Shown in pieces: positions 1-12,176 of a stretch of 12,176 nt of DNA. The stretch is from an uncultured bacterium (lineage in GTDB: Bacteria > Hydrothermota > UBA3073 > NMUJ01). The notes below the pieces were generated by a model. The model was not told where the DNA came from. It worked only from the letters and a program-made list of their open reading frames with translations, and did no database searches. The position numbers and the translations under genes were made by a program. Each line of letters begins with the position of its first letter. Position 1 is the first letter of the stretch. The stretch lies in NCBI GenBank assembly GCA_965612795.1, contig CBFDTI010000036.1:1-12176 (forward strand), in the 5' to 3' direction.

Positions 1-833
1 AACCTATCTATATCCTTACGTGACATCTGACGGCCCATCAACTTCAATATTCGGGTGGATACATGTTGTATAGGGATATGCAAGTAAGATGCAAGCTTGG
101 GATGATCGTTTACAAGCTTTACGAGTTCAACTGTTACATCAGTTGGATGCACGTATAGAAGCCGTAATAGATATAAGCCTGGCAATTCAGCTAATCGTTC
201 CACCAACTGCAACAGATGTGGTCTCCCATACAAGTCCTCTCCATAGGATGTGAGGTCCTGTGCTACAAGTATGATTTCCCTGACACCAGACTCTATAAGT
301 TGTGTCGCCTCATGTATTATGGAGTTTATGGGTTTGCTCCTTAACTTACCTTTTATCTGTGGTATGGTGCAGAAAGTGCAGTCACGGTTGCATCCCCTGG
401 ATATCTCAATATATGCGTATGGATAAGTATCTAACCGCTTTCTGGGCAAATAATCGTAACGCGTAACCGTATGTAGGGGTAACACTGGGGGTGTATCACC
501 ATAAAGTATAGCATTGAATATACCCTTGAGATCTTCCTGGCTGGTTGCTATAATGTTTGTGTTATGGTTGAAGGGGTTGCAGCCGTATCTTTCGGGTAAA
601 CAACCGGTTACTATTATTTTCTTGTGTGGATACTTTTGACGTAAGGTATGTATTCTTTCACGTGACTCAAGTTCGGCATCCTTTATGAATGCACAGGTGT
701 TGATTATCAACACATCCGCTATTTGGGGTGAATCCACAACTTTTAATCCTTTAGTTTCGAGATAATGGGCGATTATTTCACTACCTACGATGTTACGTGG
801 ACACCCCAATGTCTCAATGTATACGCGTATCAC
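1..833 (-). CDS. rimO: Ribosomal protein S12 methylthiotransferase RimO (radical SAM), truncated by the window edge
   Basis: Absent from the ORF track; translated by hand. GTG at 833-831 gives [14 protein letters not shown] (LGCxxN), then [23 protein letters not shown], radical-[23 protein letters not shown] (CxxxCxxC), [20 protein letters not shown] and YLHIPIQH. LGCPxN, AQD and RLLY favour RimO over MiaB/MtaB. Overlaps the gyrA 3' end by 20 nt. Confidence 0.88.
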
Positions 834-3219
834 CTGAGTTATGGAGGGCTACAACCTTAATGACTTTATCGTCTTCGTTAAGCCTTATCACACGTGTACC
901 ACGGGTGGCTCTACCCTGGATGGTAAGTTGCGTTATATCCATACGTATGATGTAACCACGTTCGGTGAGCACAAAGATATGATCGCCAGGATACACGAGC
1001 TCACCACCACCTACTTCTCCCTTTATTCCTATTATGCCCTGACCACCGCGGTGCATCTTACGGTAATCTTTCACTGGAGTAAGTTTACCATACCCGTGTT
1101 GCGTGAGTAGGAGTAGGTAACCGTCCTCGCTATGTGAGACAAGGCCTAACTTCACGGAGTCACCTTCCCTGAGCCGTATCCCACGTACACCATGGGCGTA
1201 ACGGCTGAGGTTACGTAATTCGCTGCTGTCGAAACGTACAACTTTACCGTGGGTGGTTACTATCAAGAGATCATCACCCTCTTTGAATGGTACCACCGCG
1301 CATAATGTATCATCCGGCTGTACCCGTATGCCGATTATGCCGCTACGGGTGATGTTGTTGAATGCCTCTATCGGGACACGCTTCACCAACCCACGTTGTG
1401 TCACGAGTAACAGTTGGTATCCATCTTTTGGATAGGGGAATATTGCGATGATGTTTTCTTCTTTACCGATATTAAGTAGTTGAGCGATGGGTTTGCCACG
1501 TCCACCTTTGCTGGTAAGCGGTATTTCATATGTGTTTATAGCGTAAGCCTTACCCTTATCGGTAAATATAAGGAGACGGCCGAGTGAGAACGCGACCGTA
1601 CCTGTAATCGTACGGTCTTCTACGGTGAGCTCTATGCCACGTGCACCTTTGCCGCCACGTTGTTGTTCTTTATACTCGTCGAGCGGTGTACGTTTAATGT
1701 ACCCTCTACGGGTGACGGTTACAAACTCGTAACGTTTGGGGATTAGATCTTCGATATTGAATTCGTGTGATGCTTCTGTTATCTTAGTACGTCGTGCGTC
1801 TGCATATTTTTTGCGTATATCCAATAGCTCTTTTTTCACCTCCTGCATGATGTTAGCTCTTGATGCGAGTATCTCTCTGTAGCGGGTAATTTCGAGCTGC
1901 AACTGCTGCAGTTCGTTGTCTAACTTTTCGCGTTCAAGATGGGTTAATCTAGCTAATCGCATTTCCAAAATTGCATGTGTCTGTTTGGGGGTGAGGTTAA
2001 ACCTCTCTCCCAACGTCTTCTCTGCGGTGGCAATATCGGGAGCTCCTTTTATTATGGAGACTACTTCGTCGATATGATCAAGTGCGATACGTAAACCCTC
2101 AACAATGTGTAACCTATCTTCTGCTTTCTTTAGATCGTGTTGGGTGCGACGTTTCACCACATCATGACGATGTTCGAGGAAATCTGTCAATATCTCCTTC
2201 AACGTGTATAGATGGGGTACGTTGTTTCTGAGTGCCAACAGGATTATGCCGTAAGTGGTTTGTAGCGGTGTGTGCATGTATAACTTGTTAAGCACAATTT
2301 CGGGTTCAATATCCTTGCGTAGCTCGATGGCTACGCGGATACCTTCGCGGTCGGATTCGTCCCTTATGTCGATGATACCCTCTATTACCTTGTTTTTGAC
2401 CAGCTCCGCTATGCGTTCGATGAGCAACGCTTTGTTTATCTGATAAGGGATCTCGCGTATGTAGATGTAATTTTTGCGTTTATCGGTGACGATTTCAGTT
2501 TTACCACGTAGGATGATCTTACCCTTACCGGTTTTGTATGCCTGTAGTATACCGGATGTACCTATAATTTCGCCACCCGTTGGGAAGTCGGGCCCTTTAA
2601 TGTAGTGGGTTAGATCTTCAATGGTTAGCTCTGGGTTATCGATAAGCGCTACAAGTGCATCTATGACTTCACCTAAATTATGTGGTGGTATGTTTGTGGC
2701 CATACCCACAGCAATACCAGAGGCACCGTTTATCAGCAGGTTCGGTATTTTGGCAGGCAAGACCTGTGGCTCTTGGAGCTTACCGTCGAAGTTCGGCATA
2801 AATGGTACGGTATCTTTTTCGATGTCACGTAGCATCTCCTCGGCTATTTCGCTCAACCGTGCCTCGGTGTATCGGTACGCGGCGGGTGCGTCACCGTCGA
2901 CCGACCCGAAGTTGCCCTGCCCCTGTACTAAAGGGTAACGTAGTGAGAAATCCTGTGCCATACGGACGAGTGCATCGTATACAGCCATATCGCCATGTGG
3001 ATGGTACTTGCCGAGTACCTCGCCGATGATGGTGGCCGACTTTTTGAATGGCCTATTATGTAACAGGCCTAACCCCCACATAGCGTAGAGGATACGGCGG
3101 TGGACGGGTTTCAACCCATCACGTGCATCGGGTAGAGCACGCCCTATTATTACGCTCATGGCGTAGCTGAGGTAAGAGCGCTGCATCTCATCTTCTATAG
3201 GAACATATTCTATTGCCAT
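814..3219 (-). CDS. gyrA: DNA gyrase subunit A
   Basis: [22 protein letters not shown], catalytic AAYRY (Tyr117), [14 protein letters not shown], beta-pinwheel C-terminal repeats and a GyrA-box QQRGGKG (nt 1645-1665), which separates GyrA from ParC. Confidence 0.97.
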
Positions 3220-3227
3220 CTTATTTT

Positions 3228-3255
3228 AAGATAAAGCGAAATCCTTATAAGTCAA
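3228..3255 (-). promoter_or_regulatory. Putative sigma70 promoter of gyrA (TTGACT-N16-TATCTT)
   Basis: -35 TTGACT at 3255-3250 and -10 TATCTT at 3233-3228 in the 58-bp holB-gyrA gap; the ATG follows 8 nt after the -10; closely matches the element upstream of gyrB. Confidence 0.7.
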
Positions 3256-3277
3256 CAATTTAGGTGCGATAATGGGA

Positions 3278-4191
3278 TCATAAAGTGAGCGAGATGTAGT
3301 ACCATAATAGGTCGGGAGCTACATTATATTTCAAGTGTGAGTGCACTTGTTCGCAGAGTTTGATACCTTTAAGCAACCGATCAGTATCCCATGTACGTAA
3401 CTCGTCTGGTATGGGTGTGACACGTTTAACCCCATACTTTGTGAGTAACGCTGTACGAAGTAGTGACTCGACAGCATGTAGGAAATCGTCCAGCTCAATA
3501 CTGAGGTTATTAAGTAGCTTAAGGCGATCGCTTTTGGGCGAGATGAGAAATTTTGTTGCCAATGCTTCCTTTTCTTGTTGCTTACCTTCTATTATGTTTA
3601 ATGCGCGGGTGAGGCTACCTTCGGCACGTTCCACGATGAGTTTGAGCTCCTTCTCATGTAGGGGATAGTGGGTGCGAAGGTAGGTTGTGAGTTCGTGTTT
3701 TTCGATACGTCGGAATGGTATCTTGCGGGTACGTGACTTTATGGTGTCGGGTAACATATCTTCGCGTGAAGTTATAAGTATAAACGAAGTGCGTTCGGGG
3801 GGTTCCTCCAGTAGCTTGAGTAATGCGTTGGCTGCTTCCTGTGTCATTGTGTGTGCATCATCTATTATAAAGAACCTATGTGCTAAGCTGCTTAGGTAAG
3901 AAGCTTCTTCTTTGAGGTTACGAATTTGGTCAATGTGTATTGTACCTTTATCAGTAGGTGTCACGAGTACGACGTCGAGCGTTAGACCATCATCTATGAG
4001 CTTCGATATGCGGTGACCTGCCTCTTGGGGTAACCGATGGGTATTGACCAATTTAGCAAACTCCATGGCTAAGGTGCGTTTACCGACATGATCGGGACCG
4101 GTAAACAGATATGCGGTGGCTATTCTATCGGCTTGTATATCGCTGATAAGCATCTTCTTCGCAAGTTTATGGCCTACGACATTAGTGAATG

Positions 4192-7346: not shown

Positions 7347-7373
7347 TTGACACACACTCTGGGTGGTTATTTT
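7347..7373 (+). promoter_or_regulatory. Putative promoter of the HD-leuCD-citDE-citF operon (TTGACA-N15-TATTTT)
   Basis: Consensus -35 TTGACA at 7347-7352 and TATTTT at 7368-7373, in the same GTTATTTTAT context as the gyrB -10. The spacer is only 15 bp. Confidence 0.5.
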
Positions 7374-7386
7374 ATCAACGCCAGAG

Positions 7387-7965
7387 ATGAAGCAAGTTAG
7401 CCTAAAAGAGAAAATCAAAGCATTATTTCGTAAGCAGTTGGAGCTCATCAGTGACCCCGCTTTACGTGATAAGGTAGTAAATGTGTGGGTAAACGCCATG
7501 AAGCTGGGTGGTTGGGCGGTTGACGATCTGGAGAATATACCGTTCACGTTGTTGGTTGATACCCAAGGTGTGAGCTTGATCGATCACACCATAGCGGTGA
7601 CCGAATCCGCGTATAGTATGGCGATCGCTATGCGTGAAACCTACGAGCGTGCGGGCTTCAAGCTAAACCTCGATTGGCTTGTAGCGGGTGCGTTGCTACA
7701 TGATGTAGGTAAGCTGCTGGAGATCGAGCAGTCCGGCACCTCGTATCGCAAATCCTATCGTGGCAAATGTTTACGTCATCCCATGTGGGGTGCTGTATTG
7801 GCGGCACAGGAGGGGCTACCTGATGAAGTGTGCAACATCATCGCTTACCACTCACGTGAGGGTGAAGGTAACCCCATTCGAATTGAAACCATCCTCATAC
7901 GGCATGCAGATTTTGCGTGTTTCGATCCTTTCGCCTTACGTGCAAAGAGTATGTTGGTGGAGTGA
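7387..7965 (+). CDS. HD-domain (HDIG-type) metal-dependent phosphohydrolase
   Basis: LIDHT...GALLHDVGK...RHP...IIAYH...RHAD gives the full H..HD..H..H..D pattern. ATG 7387 is preferred because the GTG at 7363 lies inside the putative promoter. The stop overlaps the next start (TGATG). Confidence 0.88.
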   Translation: MKQVSLKEKIKALFRKQLELISDPALRDKVVNVWVNAMKLGGWAVDDLENIPFTLLVDTQGVSLIDHTIAVTESAYSMAIAMRETYERAGFKLNLDWLVAGALLHDVGKLLEIEQSGTSYRKSYRGKCLRHPMWGAVLAAQEGLPDEVCNIIAYHSREGEGNPIRIETILIRHADFACFDPFALRAKSMLVE

Positions 7966-9761
7966 TGGGCCACACTATTATCGAAAAGATTATCGCCCGC
8001 CATTGTGGTAAACAGGTGCAACCCGGTGATATTGTTGATATGTTTATCGATACCCGGGTAGCACGTGACTTCGGTGGTGCCAATGTAGTCAAGCATCTCG
8101 AAACCCATGGCTTGGAGATCGACGACCCACAACGTACGTTCTTTACGTTTGATTGTAACCCAACAGGTTCGGATCAGAACTATGCTACTAACCAACATAT
8201 CTGTCGCGTATTTGCACGCAAACATGGTATCAAAGTCTACGACATAAATGCTGGTATAGGTACACATATTGCGATCGATGAAGGGTTGGTATCACCTGGT
8301 GATACGTTTGTATCCACGGATTCACACGCCAACATCGTTGGCGCTATAGGGGCATTGGGTCAGGGTATGGGCGATCTTGACATCGCATACGCGTTTGCTA
8401 AGGGGAGAGTATGGTTCAAGGTACCACCAACAATCAAGCTGATACTCAAAGGTAAACCACCTGCTAACGTAACTCCTAAGGATATAACGCTATTCCTTGT
8501 CAAACATTTTGGTGCATCGGGACTGCTGGGTTATGCGTGCGAAGTTTATGGCGACATAGTGGATGAACTCACCCTATCCGCACGTATCACGATAGCGTCG
8601 ATGGCTACCGAGATGAGTGCTATAGCTATGCTTTTTGCACCCAACAAACAGATACTGGAGTATTGTCGTAATGTAGCACAACGTGGGTTCACCCCAGTCT
8701 ATGCGGATGAAGATGCCAAGTACGAGGATGTCGTAACCCTGGATATATCCAGATTGGAACCCCTAATCGCGCAACCCGGTCGTCCCGACAATGTGGTACC
8801 AGTAGCTGAAGTGCAGGGTAAAAAGATCGATTCGGTATTCATCGGTTCGTGTACCAACGGCAGATACGAGGATATGGTGCAGGTAGCTAAAATACTGGAA
8901 GGTAGGAAAGTAGCCCCTGGTGTGGTGCTAAAGATAGTGCCATCAACCGATAAGATCTGGTATCGGTGTCTCGAAACTGGCATCTTTAAGATATTCAAAT
9001 CCGCAGGTGCGCTCATCGGTAACGCCGGGTGTGCGGGTTGTGCTGCGGGTCAGATCGGTCAAAACGGTCCAGGCGAAGTAACCGTAAGCACTGGTAACCG
9101 CAACTTCCCCGGCAAACAAGGTAAAGGTGAGGTATGGCTTACATCGCCAGCGACAGCTGCTGCATCTGCGGTTGCTGGATATATCACCACTGCTGATAAG
9201 ATACCCGACAAACCCGCAATCTTTATTGTACCGAAACCTAAACCTATTCCCAAAGCACGTTGTGAGGTAGGTGAACGTCCCACCCGCATACGTGGTAGAG
9301 TATGGGTGATACCTATCGACAACATCGACACCGATATGATATATCACAACCGCTACCTTACGGTGACCGATGTCAATCAGATGGGCCAGTACGCGTTTAG
9401 CAACCTACCAGGGTGGCAGGATTTACACAAAAAGGTGCAACCCGGTGACATAATTGTCACTGGTAGGAATTTCGGTTGCGGTAGCTCACGTCAACATGCG
9501 GTTGATTGCTTCCGTGCATTGAGGTTAGGTGCTATAATCGCAAAGTCGTTCGCCCCAATATATGAACGTAATGCGATAAATTCAGGCTTACCAATAATGG
9601 TGGCAGATCTCGACAACCTCAACTTAAAGGATGGTGATGAGCTTGAAATCGATTTCGTCACCGGTGAAATACGTAAGGTAGCCACTGGTGAAACCGTGCA
9701 TGGGGTGCCATTCTCTGAAATACAGTTATCAATTTACAAACGTGGTGGGTTGCTACCTTAA
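7965..9761 (+). CDS. Fused large+small subunit aconitase-family hydro-lyase (3-isopropylmalate dehydratase/homoaconitase-like), substrate unknown
   Basis: 598 aa from ATG 7965. LeuC-like part: MGHTIIEKI, TDSH, GSCTN (C296), CAGC (C356/C359), STGNRNF, SPATAAASA. Pro/Lys-rich linker, then LeuD-like part: GRVW, DNIDTD, GRNFGCGSSR, IAKSFAPIYERNAINSGLP, GGLL. Confidence 0.88.
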   Translation: MGHTIIEKIIARHCGKQVQPGDIVDMFIDTRVARDFGGANVVKHLETHGLEIDDPQRTFFTFDCNPTGSDQNYATNQHICRVFARKHGIKVYDINAGIGTHIAIDEGLVSPGDTFVSTDSHANIVGAIGALGQGMGDLDIAYAFAKGRVWFKVPPTIKLILKGKPPANVTPKDITLFLVKHFGASGLLGYACEVYGDIVDELTLSARITIASMATEMSAIAMLFAPNKQILEYCRNVAQRGFTPVYADEDAKYEDVVTLDISRLEPLIAQPGRPDNVVPVAEVQGKKIDSVFIGSCTNGRYEDMVQVAKILEGRKVAPGVVLKIVPSTDKIWYRCLETGIFKIFKSAGALIGNAGCAGCAAGQIGQNGPGEVTVSTGNRNFPGKQGKGEVWLTSPATAAASAVAGYITTADKIPDKPAIFIVPKPKPIPKARCEVGERPTRIRGRVWVIPIDNIDTDMIYHNRYLTVTDVNQMGQYAFSNLPGWQDLHKKVQPGDIIVTGRNFGCGSSRQHAVDCFRALRLGAIIAKSFAPIYERNAINSGLPIMVADLDNLNLKDGDELEIDFVTGEIRKVATGETVHGVPFSEIQLSIYKRGGLLP

Positions 9762-9781
9762 CACAAAAGTAACCAAAATTT

Positions 9782-9786
9782 GGAGG
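9782..9786 (+). promoter_or_regulatory. Shine-Dalgarno GGAGG of the citD-citE fusion
   Basis: GGAGG 4 nt upstream of ATG 9791. Confidence 0.7.
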
Positions 9787-9790
9787 CAAT

Positions 9791-10975
9791 ATGGAGGTTG
9801 CAGAAGTAGGTAGACGTGGCCCTGACATACGGGCAGATTGTTTCGTACATTTTGAGCTCAGACCCAGTGGTGGGTTGGATATCGAACTCAAAAGCAAAGT
9901 GGAATCGATGTATGGCGATTCCATACGTGGGTTGGTGACCGATATGTTGGAATATTTTGGTATCAAAAACGCATACATATATCTTGAGGATTATCGTGCA
10001 TTCCCGTGGGTATTGATGGCACGTATCGAGGCAGCGATCAAAAAATGTCTACCCGATATCGAGCTGGAATACCTACCTGATATGTTGCCACAAAACCTAT
10101 ACAAGAAGCCACGTGATACGTTTAGACGTACGCGGTTGTATGTACCGGGTGACCAACCTCGGCTTATCATCAACTGTGGGCTTTATAAACCCGATGGTAT
10201 AGTGCTCGACCTCGAAGATAGTGTAGCACCCGACCATAAGTTTGGTGCACGCTTCATGGTACGTAACGCATTACGGGCAGTTGACCTAATGGGTGCAGAA
10301 CGTATGGTACGTATCAACCAGTTACCTAATGGGTTGGACGACCTACCGTATGTGGTACCACATAACCTACATACGGTGTTGATACCCAAATGTGAATCCG
10401 GTGACCAGGTTCGACAGGTTGCCGATAAGGTTGATACATTGCGTAAGCAACACAAAATAGAAGATGAGATATACCTCATACCGATTATTGAGAGTGCAAT
10501 GGGTGTGATCAACGCATACGAGATAGCGAGTGCATCCCCACATGTGGTAGCATTAGCGGTGGGGTTGGAGGACCTAACCGCTGACATAGGGGCTGAACGT
10601 ACCAAAGAGGGTACGGAAACGTTGTTTGCACGTCAACAGATAGTTATCGCTGCACGTGCTGCTGGTGTACAGCCGCTCGATACGGTATATTCGGATGTCG
10701 AGGATTACGAAGGTTTACGTGCAAGCGTACGTGAAGCCAAACGTATGGGGTTTGAAGGCAAGGGATGTATCCACCCACTACAGGTTAGGGTGATACATGA
10801 GGAGTTCATGCCAACCCCTGAAGAGGTTGAAAAAGCACACCGTATAGTTGAGGCGATGGAGGAAGCCAAACGCAAAGGGTTGGGCGTGGTAGCACTTGGT
10901 ACGAAGATGATCGATCCACCCGTCGTCAAACGTGCACTTAGGGTGTTGAAGCTAAAGGAATTGTCCGAGAAATGA
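9791..10975 (+). CDS. citE: Citrate lyase gamma (ACP/CitD-like) - beta (citryl-CoA/ACP lyase, CitE) fusion protein
   Basis: aa 1-87 resemble CitD (IELKSKVESMYGDSIR, LEDYRAFPWVLMARIEAA). aa ~112-394 are CitE/HpcH family (RRTRLYVPG, DLEDSV, VRIN, IIESA, GLEDL, GFEGKGCIHP, MIDPP). Confidence 0.88.
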   Translation: MEVAEVGRRGPDIRADCFVHFELRPSGGLDIELKSKVESMYGDSIRGLVTDMLEYFGIKNAYIYLEDYRAFPWVLMARIEAAIKKCLPDIELEYLPDMLPQNLYKKPRDTFRRTRLYVPGDQPRLIINCGLYKPDGIVLDLEDSVAPDHKFGARFMVRNALRAVDLMGAERMVRINQLPNGLDDLPYVVPHNLHTVLIPKCESGDQVRQVADKVDTLRKQHKIEDEIYLIPIIESAMGVINAYEIASASPHVVALAVGLEDLTADIGAERTKEGTETLFARQQIVIAARAAGVQPLDTVYSDVEDYEGLRASVREAKRMGFEGKGCIHPLQVRVIHEEFMPTPEEVEKAHRIVEAMEEAKRKGLGVVALGTKMIDPPVVKRALRVLKLKELSEK

Positions 10976-10982
10976 GATAACC

Positions 10983-10989
10983 AGGAGGT
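10983..10989 (+). promoter_or_regulatory. Shine-Dalgarno AGGAGGT of citF
   Basis: AGGAGGT just upstream of ATG 10993. Confidence 0.75.
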
Positions 10990-10992
10990 TTT

Positions 10993-12176
10993 ATGGGCGG
11001 TAAAATCAACGCCGCTGGTAGATGGGTACCTGATGAGATTAACGGTAAACCTGTGATACCGTTTCAAGGTGTCGGCAAATATATACCAAAAGGTAGGAAA
11101 GCAGCACCTCCCATCGTAAGTTGTGCGAATTACCCTAAGGATGGAAACAAAGTTGTTAAATCACTACGCGAGGCGCTCGAACTCTGTGGCTTACGTGATG
11201 GTATGACGATAACGACACATCACCACTTCCGTAATGGTGATAAGCTTGCTAATAAATTGTTCGATATCATTGCTGAAATGGGGGTTAAGGACCTGGTATG
11301 GTACCCCAGTGCTGCATTCCCGTGTCATGAACCTATCATCAAGCATCTCAAGAGTGGTGTGATACATCATATCGAGGGTAGCCTTAATGGACCTTTGGGT
11401 GAGTTCTGCACATATGGTGGTATGCGTGGACAAGGTGTGTTACGTTCGCATGGTGGACGCTATCGTGCGATACAGGATGGTGAAGTACATGTTGACATAG
11501 CAATGATAGCTGCACCGACAGCTGATCCGTTCGGTAATGCCAACGCCCTATACGGTAAGTCGGCGTGTGGACTGCTGGGGTTTGCGCTCGCTGATGCACA
11601 GTACGCGGATAAGGTGATCATAGTGACTGATAATCTGGTACCATTCCCATGCATACCGTGGCAGATACATGGTAACTGGGTAGACTACGTGGTGGTGATG
11701 GACGATATCGGTGACCCCAGCAAGATCGTATCCGGTACCACTGTTATTACACGTAGCCCGGCAAGGTTGTTGATCGCTGAGTACACGGCAAGGTTTATCA
11801 AAGAGGCTGGCATAATGCGGGACGGGTTCTCGTTTCAAGCGGGTGCCGGCGGTACATCGCTCGCGTTTATACCGTATCTTAAGAAATACATGAAAGAGGC
11901 CGGTATCAAAGCACGTTGGGTACGTGGTGGTAGCACAAAGTATCTGGTGGAACTGCTCGAGGAGGGGCTTACGGACTACATACTGGATGGACAGACGTTC
12001 GACCTACATGGGGTGCGTTCGATGCGCGATAACCCCAACCACGTATGGACGTCACCGTTTACAAGCTACAACTACCACGGTAAGGGTAACTTTGCATCTA
12101 TGGTGGATGTGGTGGTACTGGGTGCCACTGAAGTGGATGTTAACTTCAACGCTAACGTGGTGACACACTCAGATGG
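10993..12176 (+). CDS. citF: Citrate lyase alpha chain (citrate CoA/ACP transferase), truncated by the window edge
   Basis: Absent from the ORF track; translated by hand. MGGKINAAGRWVP..., GLRDGMTITTHHHFRNGD, LRSHGGR, ADPFGNAN, GFSFQAGAGG, LDGQTFD and DVVVLGATEVDVNFNANVVTHSD are CitF signatures. Confidence 0.92.
   Translation, partial: MGGKINAAGRWVPDEINGKPVIPFQGVGKYIPKGRKAAPPIVSCANYPKDGNKVVKSLREALELCGLRDGMTITTHHHFRNGDKLANKLFDIIAEMGVKDLVWYPSAAFPCHEPIIKHLKSGVIHHIEGSLNGPLGEFCTYGGMRGQGVLRSHGGRYRAIQDGEVHVDIAMIAAPTADPFGNANALYGKSACGLLGFALADAQYADKVIIVTDNLVPFPCIPWQIHGNWVDYVVVMDDIGDPSKIVSGTTVITRSPARLLIAEYTARFIKEAGIMRDGFSFQAGAGGTSLAFIPYLKKYMKEAGIKARWVRGGSTKYLVELLEEGLTDYILDGQTFDLHGVRSMRDNPNHVWTSPFTSYNYHGKGNFASMVDVVVLGATEVDVNFNANVVTHSD

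Follow-up and report, generated by a model that had tools for sequence, protein, structure and literature searches.

Can a citrate-lyase acyl carrier still serve its enzyme when the residue expected to hold its cofactor is missing? Citrate lyase works with an acyl carrier that bears a unique covalent CoA-like arm, and three helper enzymes are required. The window, the whole stretch of 12,176 nucleotides analysed here, encodes a carrier-like domain fused to a lyase, and the original prediction held that this domain probably could not be loaded. The fusion gene has the following features.

9782 to 9786, + strand: GGAGG ribosome-binding site of the fusion gene (read from the sequence)
9791 to 10975, + strand: CitD-CitE fusion gene (P0001), 394 aa (open reading frame and translation; Pfam PF06857 and PF03328)
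9791 to 10051, + strand: CitD-like (citrate lyase ACP family) domain, residues 1–87 (PF06857, AF2 model)
9830 to 9838, + strand: codons of R14-A15-D16, cgg gca gat (sequence, MAFFT alignment, HMM coordinates)
9989 to 10000, + strand: D67-Y68-R69-A70, aligned with D-K-G-A of E. coli CitD (MAFFT alignment)
10127 to 10777, + strand: CitE-type HpcH/HpaI C-C lyase domain, residues 113–329 (PF03328, 183.5 bits)

The translation of the reading frame at 9791–10975 on the + strand begins MEVAEVGRRGPDIRADCFVHFELRPSGG. Since no start codon intervenes between the in-frame TAA upstream (9770–9772) and position 9791, and GGAGG stands at 9782–9786, the ATG at 9791 is the sole possible start of the gene. The AF2 model of the whole fusion protein has a mean pLDDT of 94.5 and a pTM of 0.92. 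The letters RADC and DYRA recur in a genome of the same genus (L101) and in a 99% identical protein (P0005), and RADC is further present in P0006, P0007, P0008 and L003; these letters are therefore not a sequencing slip.

The N-terminal domain is homologous to CitD, as the original prediction had it. PF06857 matches residues 16–85 of the fusion protein (E = 5.3e-13; 49.5 bits against a cut-off of 25.1), and the whole-genome scan gives 52.5 bits at 9833–10045. Scores on the curated equivalog models lie below the cut-offs (TIGR01608, 42.6–45.3 against 63.5; PRK13253, 44.7–47.4 against 65), and E. coli CitD reaches 100.3 and 143.7 on the same two models. In the AF2 model the domain adopts a beta-beta-beta-alpha-beta-alpha arrangement, with strands at residues 3–7, 16–23, 29–35 and 61–68, helices at residues 38–55 and 72–86, and a block-mean pLDDT of at least 91 throughout. 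A phmmer search of the PDB sequences with the domain alone returned no carrier, just chance matches to designed beta-trefoils. HMM coordinates place E. coli CitD 1–94 at profile positions 1–94 and window residues 14–91 at positions 14–91; as the MAFFT alignment concurs on this register, R14 stands at E. coli Ser14, which we take to be the prosthetic-group attachment site, and A15 at E. coli Gly15. The first serine of the fusion protein is S26. The sequence details that had been singled out earlier, namely R14-A15-D16, the lack of a serine before residue 26 and the replacement of DKGA by DYRA, are all borne out, the first two by sequence, alignment and HMM register and the last by the alignment of D67–A70. 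Residues 1–87 are confirmed as a CitD homologue with arginine at the Ser14 position.

The absence of Ser14 is common to the fusion family and is not peculiar to the window gene. Across 199 family rows, position 14 is occupied by R in 131, A in 35, S in 21, G in 6, K in 4, and T and P in one each, that is, by a basic residue (Arg or Lys) in 135. The conserved serine of the family is found at position 15 (S in 189 rows, A in 9, G in one), which is occupied by glycine in E. coli. The window falls in an eight-row clade with serine at neither position, and Gly69 is replaced in this clade only (G in 193 rows, S in 4 and R in 2; six non-Gly rows of 199). None of 25 hand-picked genomes of the same phylum has Ser14, and 12 have no serine at 14 or 15, the residues there being K-G, K-A, K-Q, P-F, R-V, N-L or R-A. 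CitE and CitF adjoin the CitD-like domain, by Pfam, in four hand-picked same-phylum genomes, two of which (L098 and L100) lack serine at both positions. Stand-alone CitD-like relatives have lysine at position 14. The fusion is spread over many phyla, with at least 587 species-level genomes recovered in a pattern scan.

Two residues next to position 14 were considered as replacements for the missing serine. Cys17 as a direct acyl-carrying thiol was rejected, as this is a core-packing position: it follows the hydrophobic periodicity of the strand (V19, F21, L23), and same-phylum relatives of the RSD type have V, I, A or L there; the cysteine is found in 198 of the 199 rows, yet E. coli has Val17. 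Ser15 is an unlikely shifted attachment site; it aligns with E. coli Gly15, and the position is G, A, Q, F, V or L in other subfamilies.

The cofactor of classical CitD is 2'-(5''-phosphoribosyl)-3'-dephospho-CoA, and the genome appears to lack the enzymes that would make, attach or acetylate it. The assembly is 99.48% complete in 128 contigs, and its sole PF06857 domain, by whole-genome scan, is that of the fusion protein. No profile match to CitG (PF01874, CitG/MdcB) or CitX was found in it, the E. coli control being positive for both, and none to MdcG, for which the search is weak (the MdcG control exceeded the cut-off in 0 of 14 genomes). CitC gave a single sub-threshold signal (13.8 bits, E = 0.027, contig C53), and tblastn with E. 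coli CitC, CitX and CitG returned nothing at E ≤ 1e-3. A second, true CitD encoded elsewhere, which had been offered as a way out, is therefore rejected: there is one PF06857 domain only, no CitG, CitX or MdcG, and no CitC above threshold.

The same holds across the family. Among 50 fusion-bearing genomes of other phyla, one of them a closed 5.04-Mb chromosome (L059), none yielded CitG, CitX or above-cut-off CitC, and neither CitG nor CitX was found in any of 64 genomes of the same phylum that have a CitD-like domain; these are HMM scans of mostly incomplete metagenome bins, to which an unrelated loading system would be invisible, with E. coli as a control that was positive for CitG and CitX in every search and is the only positive control for CitX. 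Two candidates for a substitute helper were set aside. The neighbouring HD-domain protein as a loading enzyme is unsupported, Pfam, NCBIfam and Atlas assigning generic HD or HDIG only. An ASKHA 'acetokinase-like' gene, which adjoins CitF in some relatives, was considered as a CitC substitute; this genome has two homologues (contigs C69 and C1), both with unrelated surroundings, and citF is not followed by one on contig C73.

The lyase part of the fusion resembles enzymes that act on free CoA esters. Its barrel and C-terminal helices extend to residue 394, and E142, D143, R174, E234 and D261 show no variation across 82 sequences, as expected of an HpcH/HpaI barrel. On the citE equivalog TIGR01588 it reaches 269.7, short of the 443.4 cut-off. 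Among solved structures its best relative is human CLYBL (PDB entry 5vxc; sequence E = 2.3e-48), which Foldseek recovers at E = 5.3e-25 with a TM-score of 0.90 on the target. The closest solved relatives (CLYBL, malyl-CoA lyases and citramalyl-CoA lyase) all use free CoA esters. The transferase partner is encoded directly downstream.

10993 to 12174, + strand: CitF (citrate lyase alpha, CoA-transferase family II), first 394 aa, with the contig end inside the gene (PF04223, 352.1 bits)

AGGAGG (10983–10988) precedes the CitF ATG at 10993, and CitF residues 488–521 were found at the start of contig C73. The window CitF is 86% identical to that of L003; against the citF equivalog cut-off of 501.45, the partial window protein scores 387.7 and the full-length L003 protein 506.9. 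CitF-family ('family II') CoA transferases have carrier proteins as natural partners and accept CoA esters in vitro, according to parts of a published account (PMC9813914).

Complex prediction supports the earlier suggestion that the domain may be a scaffold docking CitE to CitF, a role that the model makes plausible. As the window CitF is incomplete, the pair modelled was the Ser-less CitD domain and CitF of L003, the closest complete relative. The pair reached a median score of 0.61, with the best control at 0.00; among solved complexes 116 out of 157 attain the mark used, and among mismatched pairs 2 out of 215, a calibration that is only approximate here because the model was built on its own alignments, and the pair may pass through its likeness to solved carrier-transferase complexes. 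Contact agreement between runs was at least 92% and partner pLDDT at least 85. The modelled interface takes in the former cofactor loop (the equivalents of window R14, A15 and R69–P72), and L003 residues 70–73, corresponding to window D67–A70, lie within the predicted CitF interface. The clade-specific changes S15A, G69S/R and L71F map to this interface and F73W adjoins it; given these locations, they look like remodelling and not drift.

The reading that we consider fairly probable, from these sequences and models, is that the domain is an unloaded docking module and that CitF and CitE use free CoA thioesters. A carrier domain without the attachment serine, in a genome without the cofactor-loading genes, makes an enzyme that acts on free CoA esters probable; with no loop serine and no enzyme to make, attach or acetylate the cofactor, we infer that the domain bears no covalent CoA-like arm. 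The N-terminal 87 residues would thus be a genuine yet unloadable descendant of the citrate-lyase acyl carrier protein, and the arginine at the Ser14 position and the missing loading genes support the prediction that the domain probably cannot be loaded. It may persist as a folded unit whose task is to hold the fused CitE against CitF, through the face that formerly presented the cofactor. With acetyl-CoA or another acyl-CoA as the donor, CitF would place CoA on a hydroxy-tricarboxylate (citrate, possibly homocitrate), and CitE would cleave the resulting acyl-CoA to acetyl-CoA and a 2-oxoacid; the sequence of steps could also go in reverse. The earlier proposal that the complex yields acetyl-CoA without CitC, CitG or CitX stands as to the helpers, none of which is in the genome, and fails as to the yield, since with acetyl-CoA as the donor the net products would be acetate and an oxoacid. 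This explanation would apply to the whole fusion family, the clade of the window additionally lacking the neighbouring Ser15.

The genes upstream of the fusion bear on the substrate of such an enzyme.

7363 to 7965, + strand: HD-domain protein (PF01966, 57.1 bits)
7965 to 9761, + strand: fused large and small aconitase-family hydratase (P0002 from the ATG at residue 17; PF00330 and PF00694)

The TGA of the HD gene (7963–7965) overlaps the ATG of the hydratase gene (7965–7967). The hydratase passes family-level models only (PRK00402, 419.6 against 385) and no equivalog; of the 80 loci that contain a CitDE relative, 14 have an orthologue of it (56–73% identity). An HD homologue is found in 30 of the 80 loci, 28 of which also have an aconitase-family gene. 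Two metatranscriptome runs of one sample contain contigs about 96% identical to the window, one over 7363–10193 (107 differing letters) and another over 10763–12176 (55); such libraries may contain DNA and the contigs do not show a transcript, so they are not counted as evidence of expression.

A tentative alternative, to which we give rather less than an even chance, keeps the same free-CoA lyase and transferase chemistry and changes the substrate from citrate to homocitrate or another 2-hydroxy-tricarboxylate, in a route that shortens or lengthens 2-oxoacid chains. This concerns the substrate alone and is compatible with a docking role for the domain. Consistent with it are the aconitase-family genes in 43 of 80 loci, an Iso_dh-family gene in L005, the failure of the CitE part at the citE equivalog cut-off, and an Ignavibacteriaceae locus (L014) whose partner passes the homoaconitase equivalog TIGR00139 (858.2 against 529.9) and adjoins a PrpD-like gene. 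However, the hydratase of the window is not of the homoaconitase type (TIGR00139, 242.7 against 529.9), no fused homoaconitase-type gene is found in its genome, no lysine-catabolic gene lies within the window, and CitF of L003 narrowly exceeds the citF cut-off. The genome also has no PF00285 citrate synthase, which would fit a role in citrate metabolism. Judged by sequence alone, the neighbouring genes may suit either citrate or a homocitrate-like substrate, and either direction of the reaction.

An unlikely extension of the free-CoA chemistry would make the domain a non-covalent CoA handler: the basic residue 14 would grip a phosphate of a free acyl-CoA, and the domain, docked on CitF by way of the loop that contains this residue, would hand the intermediate to the fused CitE without its release.

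It is less likely still that the domain remains a covalent carrier, with a different residue as the attachment point or with loading enzymes that have no relation to CitG, CitX and MdcG and might add 4'-phosphopantetheine, for instance; most members would then use Ser15, and the clade of the window some other residue. The domain is under constraint, its old cofactor face docks on CitF in the model, and Ser15 is kept in 189 of 199 rows, unexpectedly strong conservation for a residue without a chemical role, such that it may bear an unknown modification in most members that was lost in the clade of the window. S35 is invariant, E. coli included; in canonical CitD, however, it is presumably not the attachment site, and its conservation there as well indicates a probably structural residue. 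Against a covalent carrier, neither the genome of the window nor any of 114 others yielded a precursor synthase or transferase, the 12 of 25 hand-picked same-phylum genomes noted above have serine at neither 14 nor 15, and a scan of five neighbourhoods revealed no recurrent transferase-like gene.

That the domain is a decaying, functionless relic, on which CitE and CitF do not depend, is very improbable. The serine has been lost, as has the conserved Gly69 in the clade of the window, and the scores fall under the curated CitD cut-offs. However, Ser-less pairs are 45–68% identical over the CitD part and Ser-Ser pairs of similar CitE divergence average 46–61%; with the Ser-less members as conserved as the Ser-bearing ones, the domain is not decaying. 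It is kept in 120 of 120 relatives among the matches listed and in 80 of 80 loci, its fold is predicted with high confidence and binding to CitF is predicted, and the clade-specific changes lie on or beside the modelled interface. There is hardly any chance that a normal CitD with citC, citG and citX sits in an unassembled part of the genome, for although the assembly is fragmented and the contig of the window ends inside citF, completeness is 99.48% and these genes are absent from all 114 other genomes too, the closed chromosome included.

Among known systems, the classical citrate (pro-3S)-lyase of E. coli (citCDEFXG, L087) and Klebsiella pneumoniae shares the three protein families with the window, and its operon likewise places the carrier first, then the beta lyase and the alpha transferase. 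In the window the carrier is fused to the lyase, Ser14 is replaced by arginine and the genome lacks CitC, CitX and CitG; the CitE and CitD parts score under the equivalog cut-offs, whereas the L003 CitF passes its own, and the accompanying genes encode an HD protein and a hydratase of the aconitase family, where the classical operon has a citrate carrier and regulators. Human CLYBL, malyl-CoA lyase, (S)-citramalyl-CoA lyase and Mycobacterium tuberculosis CitE resemble the lyase part and need no carrier; unlike the window protein, these free-CoA-ester lyases have neither a CitD domain nor a CitF partner. MdcC, the carrier of malonate decarboxylase, is presumably loaded by MdcB and MdcG, whereas no homologue of CitG/MdcB (PF01874) or MdcG was found in the genome of the window. 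MdcC and MdcA pair the same PF06857 carrier family with a family II transferase, as described in part of PMC9813914.

Within the openly accessible literature covered, no paper on the missing Ser14 or the missing citC, citG and citX in the fused family was found, nor any open paper giving Ser14 as the attachment site. The closest description dates from 2012, when the CitD-CitE fusion and CitF of Ignavibacterium album (IALB_1147 and IALB_1146) were reported and, in the accessible portions of that paper (PMC3362086), treated as an ordinary ATP-independent citrate lyase, with no mention there of the missing Ser14 or loading genes. The I. album protein (P0056) shows 62% identity at 98% query coverage and is likewise fused, with CitF adjacent; Ser15 (RSDC) is retained in it and in most of the family, while the window protein has Ala15 and Arg69.

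A large, multi-phylum family has thus kept three protein modules while losing the attachment serine and every helper gene. The proposal that it uses free CoA esters is directly testable, since cultured members exist (Ignavibacterium album and Melioribacter roseus), and the clade of the window, with serine at neither 14 nor 15, offers the cleanest natural control for a dispensable loop serine. Should the family prove to use free CoA esters, the labels 'citrate lyase ACP' and 'citrate lyase' would stand for a different kind of enzyme in thousands of database entries, and reconstructions that invoke these genes for citrate fermentation or a reverse TCA cycle in Ignavibacteria, Aminicenantes, WOR-3, Cloacimonadota and other groups would need re-examination. 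Were the domain in addition a CoA handler, it would be a natural case of a swinging-arm covalent carrier that has reverted to a soluble cofactor; many uncultured anaerobes would gain an ATP-independent, thioester-conserving cleavage or synthesis of citrate or homocitrate, and the genome-based reading of their TCA-type pathways would change.

The 394-residue CitD-CitE fusion protein of the window (P0001) contains an N-terminal CitD-like carrier domain (PF06857, residues 16–85; 49.5 bits against a Pfam cut-off of 25.1) followed by an HpcH/HpaI lyase domain (residues 113–329; 183.5 bits). The carrier domain falls below the curated CitD cut-off (42.6–45.3 against 63.5). Its N-terminus reads MEVAEVGRRGPDIRADCFVHFELRPSGG, and the earliest serine is S26. 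MAFFT alignment with the reference CitD, taken from the citCDEFXG region of E. coli K-12, places R14 at Ser14, which we take to be the prosthetic-group attachment site, and A15 at Gly15, with D67-Y68-R69-A70 in the place of D-K-G-A. The HMM coordinates give the same register at positions 14 and 15, E. coli CitD residues 1–94 corresponding to profile positions 1–94 and window residues 14–91 to positions 14–91. The RADC and DYRA letters recur in the same-genus genome L101 and in the 99%-identical relative P0005, and are therefore not an error. The cofactor loop thus has no loadable serine, as the original prediction of a CitD domain without the prosthetic-group serine had proposed.

The fusion gene belongs to a tight operon of four plus-strand genes in the window, which also holds ordinary genes on the minus strand.

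Genes of the window
7363–7965, plus strand: HD-domain gene, first of the operon
ATG at 7965–7967, plus strand: fused large and small aconitase-family hydratase, its start overlapping the HD-gene TGA
9791–10975, plus strand: CitD-CitE fusion gene (394 aa), with GGAGG in front
10993 to the contig end, plus strand: citF, incomplete, with AGGAGG in front
Minus strand: rimO, gyrA, holB, an M23 peptidase gene and gyrB

One base is shared between the HD-gene stop codon and the hydratase start codon (TGATG, 7963–7967), an overlap that suggests translational coupling of the two proteins. The genome (G000; 1.42 Mb, 128 contigs, 99.48% complete) includes the entire window as contig C36 (12,176 bases). 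The final 34 residues of CitF (488–521, by likeness to L003, the closest complete relative) are encoded at positions 1–105 of contig C73, and approximately 90 citF codons fall in the assembly gap between the two contigs. Next on C73, after this 3′ citF end, come a gene for a hybrid-cluster (Prismane) protein and ABC transporter genes.

Fusion of the two domains is already published: the 2012 genome paper on Ignavibacterium album describes IALB_1147 as a CitE and CitD fusion adjoining CitF, and suggests either citrate fermentation or a reverse TCA cycle of an unconventional kind (PMC3362086). Both domains are present in all 120 listed relatives of P0001 (54–99% identical, 390–450 aa), which include I. 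album JCM 16511 and bins labelled Aminicenantes, WOR-3 and Aerophobetes. At least 587 relatives were confirmed among the 600 pattern matches listed from species-level genomes. Among the best 80 of these, drawn from many phyla, 69 loci have CitF no more than 3 kb downstream on the same strand, 43 contain an aconitase-family gene, 30 an HD homologue, and 28 the HD and hydratase pair.

An alignment of the family comprises 199 rows, of which 187 are distinct in the lyase part.

Residues at five carrier-domain positions in the 199 rows
Position 14: R 131, A 35, S 21, G 6, K 4, T 1, P 1
Position 15: S 189, A 9, G 1
Position 16: D 197
Position 17: C 198
Position 69: G 193, S 4, R 2

In approximately 90% of the family, the canonical attachment position thus carries a residue other than serine. 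The conserved serine of the family lies at position 15, one past the canonical site, where E. coli has glycine; it is present in 78 of the 80 loci, the exceptions being L003 (RADC) and the Stahlbacteria-labelled bin L009 (AADC). In a FastTree phylogeny of the lyase part alone, the window's clade (support 98) consists of six rows, P0001, P0005, P0006, P0007, P0008 and L003, which are identical with the six non-glycine rows at position 69. Its sister (support 75) comprises the relative P0015 (AGDC) and L009, so the eight rows without serine at position 14 or 15 may reflect a single loss. Relatives P0016 and P0023 (TSADC) represent a second, separate change in which Ser14 is kept. N-termini were also compared from 25 same-phylum genomes, hand-picked for family spread, 20 of them placed by eye on the conserved aspartate. 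None has serine at position 14, 13 have it at position 15, and 12 have it at neither (pairs K-G, K-A, K-Q, P-F, R-V, N-L and R-A); three of the 25 are stand-alone carriers of 87–90 aa, followed by CitE and CitF. Outside the fusion family position 15 therefore varies freely, evidence against an attachment site there.

The genes for carrier loading are likewise undetected. A whole-genome profile scan of G000 found a single PF06857 domain, that of the window, which rules against the alternative of a second true CitD encoded elsewhere. Profile searches of this genome found no CitG, CitX or MdcG (the control for the MdcG model being weak) and for CitC only a sub-threshold match of 13.8 bits (E 0.027), and the CitC, CitX and CitG proteins of E. 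coli, used as tblastn queries, gave no match at E ≤ 1e-3. These searches show a genome apparently devoid of carrier-loading genes. Among 50 of the 80 fusion-carrying genomes, picked for longer contigs and taxon spread and including a closed 5.04-Mb chromosome (L059), none yielded CitG, CitX or a CitC above cut-off (six weak CitC matches of 19.6–24.8 bits against 262). PF06857 occurs in 65 of the 272 genomes of the phylum, G000 counted, and neither CitG nor CitX was found in the other 64. In both surveys CitG and CitX were recovered from the E. coli control, and the CitG model also matched in four archaea and thus reaches distant relatives.

The carrier domain is nevertheless conserved and appears to be still in use. 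Serine-less pairs are 45–68% identical in the carrier part at 67–80% lyase-part identity, and Ser-Ser pairs in the same bands average 46–61%; the two are equally alike, giving no sign of relaxed constraint. The AlphaFold2 model of P0001 (82 sequences; mean pLDDT 94.5, pTM 0.92) has strands at residues 3–7, 16–23, 29–35 and 61–68 and helices at 38–55 and 72–86, with R14 and A15 in loop 8–15. A complex was modelled from the L003 carrier domain (residues 1–100, also RADC) and full-length L003 CitF. Scores were 0.43, 0.64 and 0.61 (median 0.61, against 0.00 for the best of three controls), with at least 92% contact agreement between runs and partner pLDDT of at least 85. Of 157 solved complexes, 116 pass the mark used, as do 2 of 215 mismatched pairs; with our own alignments this calibration is rough, and a pass may also reflect likeness to solved carrier–transferase complexes. 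The model supports, without showing, the predicted binding to CitF. The interface involves L003 residues 15–16, 37–38, 40–42, 44–45 and 70–73 (R14, A15, the start of helix 1 and R69–P72 in window numbering) and CitF residues 397–398, 426–428 and 487–496, including the invariant D398 and the RDRIP motif. The clade-specific changes S15A, G69S/R and L71F lie on this interface, and F73W adjoins it. As modelled, the carrier domain would dock on CitF via its old cofactor face.

The surroundings of the operon vary among relatives. In the Ignavibacteriaceae locus L014 (4436–12867), the genes encode, in this order, CstA, HD, a homoaconitase-type hydratase (TIGR00139, 858 bits), a PrpD-like protein, CitDE and CitF. 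The metabolic genes are interrupted by two 23S-rRNA-intervening-sequence-protein genes and a Phd/YoeB toxin–antitoxin pair. In L009 (11240–13048), two DNA-methylase gene fragments and an ORF separate CitDE from CitF. The L003 neighbourhood is acyl-CoA-rich, with genes for enoyl-CoA hydratase, biotin carboxylase and a biotin carrier upstream (34–3339) and for thiolase and 3-hydroxyacyl-CoA dehydrogenase downstream (10960–13054). In four other same-phylum genomes, a gene of approximately 351 aa that weakly matches the Acetokinase family (ASKHA; 43–68 bits) lies directly 3′ of CitF, and the upstream carrier, stand-alone or fused, also lacks Ser14.

ASKHA-like genes
L097, 4277–5332
L098, 3724–4788, minus strand
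L099, 3700–4758 and 2649–3731, minus strand
L100, 4812–5867, minus strand

G000 has two homologues of these genes (50–55% identical), one on contig C69 and the other on C1; their contexts are unrelated.

The operon could supply or consume citrate, because a whole-genome profile search of G000 found no PF00285 citrate synthase, the genome has two Iso_dh-family genes, one adjoined by an HMGL-like synthase gene, and L003 CitF narrowly exceeds the citF equivalog cut-off (506.9 against 501.45). Against citrate, the lyase part of P0001 falls below the citE equivalog cut-off, the conserved gene partners are aconitase-family isomerases, and the Ignavibacteriaceae partner, adjoining the PrpD-like gene, scores 858.2 on the homoaconitase equivalog, above its cut-off of 529.9. 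The hydratase of the window itself does not belong to this homoaconitase type, and the window has no lysine genes. The HMGL-like synthase is a single gene (468 aa; only approximately 160 bits to the isopropylmalate, homocitrate and citramalate synthase models) between the IDH-like Iso_dh gene and a YggS gene, with a divergent aminotransferase gene upstream. No small-subunit gene adjoins either of two LeuC/HacA-like large-subunit genes (C43 and C35; these and the synthase observations concern contigs C38, C43 and C35), and small-subunit-like matches occur on C65 and C15.

Most likely, CitF and CitE would work on free CoA thioesters. Free CoA esters are used by every one of the closest solved relatives of the lyase part (CLYBL, malyl-CoA lyases, citramalyl-CoA lyase and CitE of M. 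tuberculosis), and CitF-family transferases, for which carriers are the natural partners, accept CoA esters in vitro according to a review (PMC9813914). With acetyl-CoA as the donor, a hydroxy-tricarboxylate would be converted to acetate and an oxoacid, and acetyl-CoA would be catalytic; acetyl-CoA as a net product, as originally predicted, would need a different CoA donor. The open literature searched yielded no paper noting that Ser14 has been lost or that citC, citG and citX are missing throughout the family. As far as the sequences indicate, this loss and the missing loading genes are a trait of the family rather than a peculiarity of P0001, and we file the system in the window as a probably carrier-independent version of the citrate-lyase machinery.
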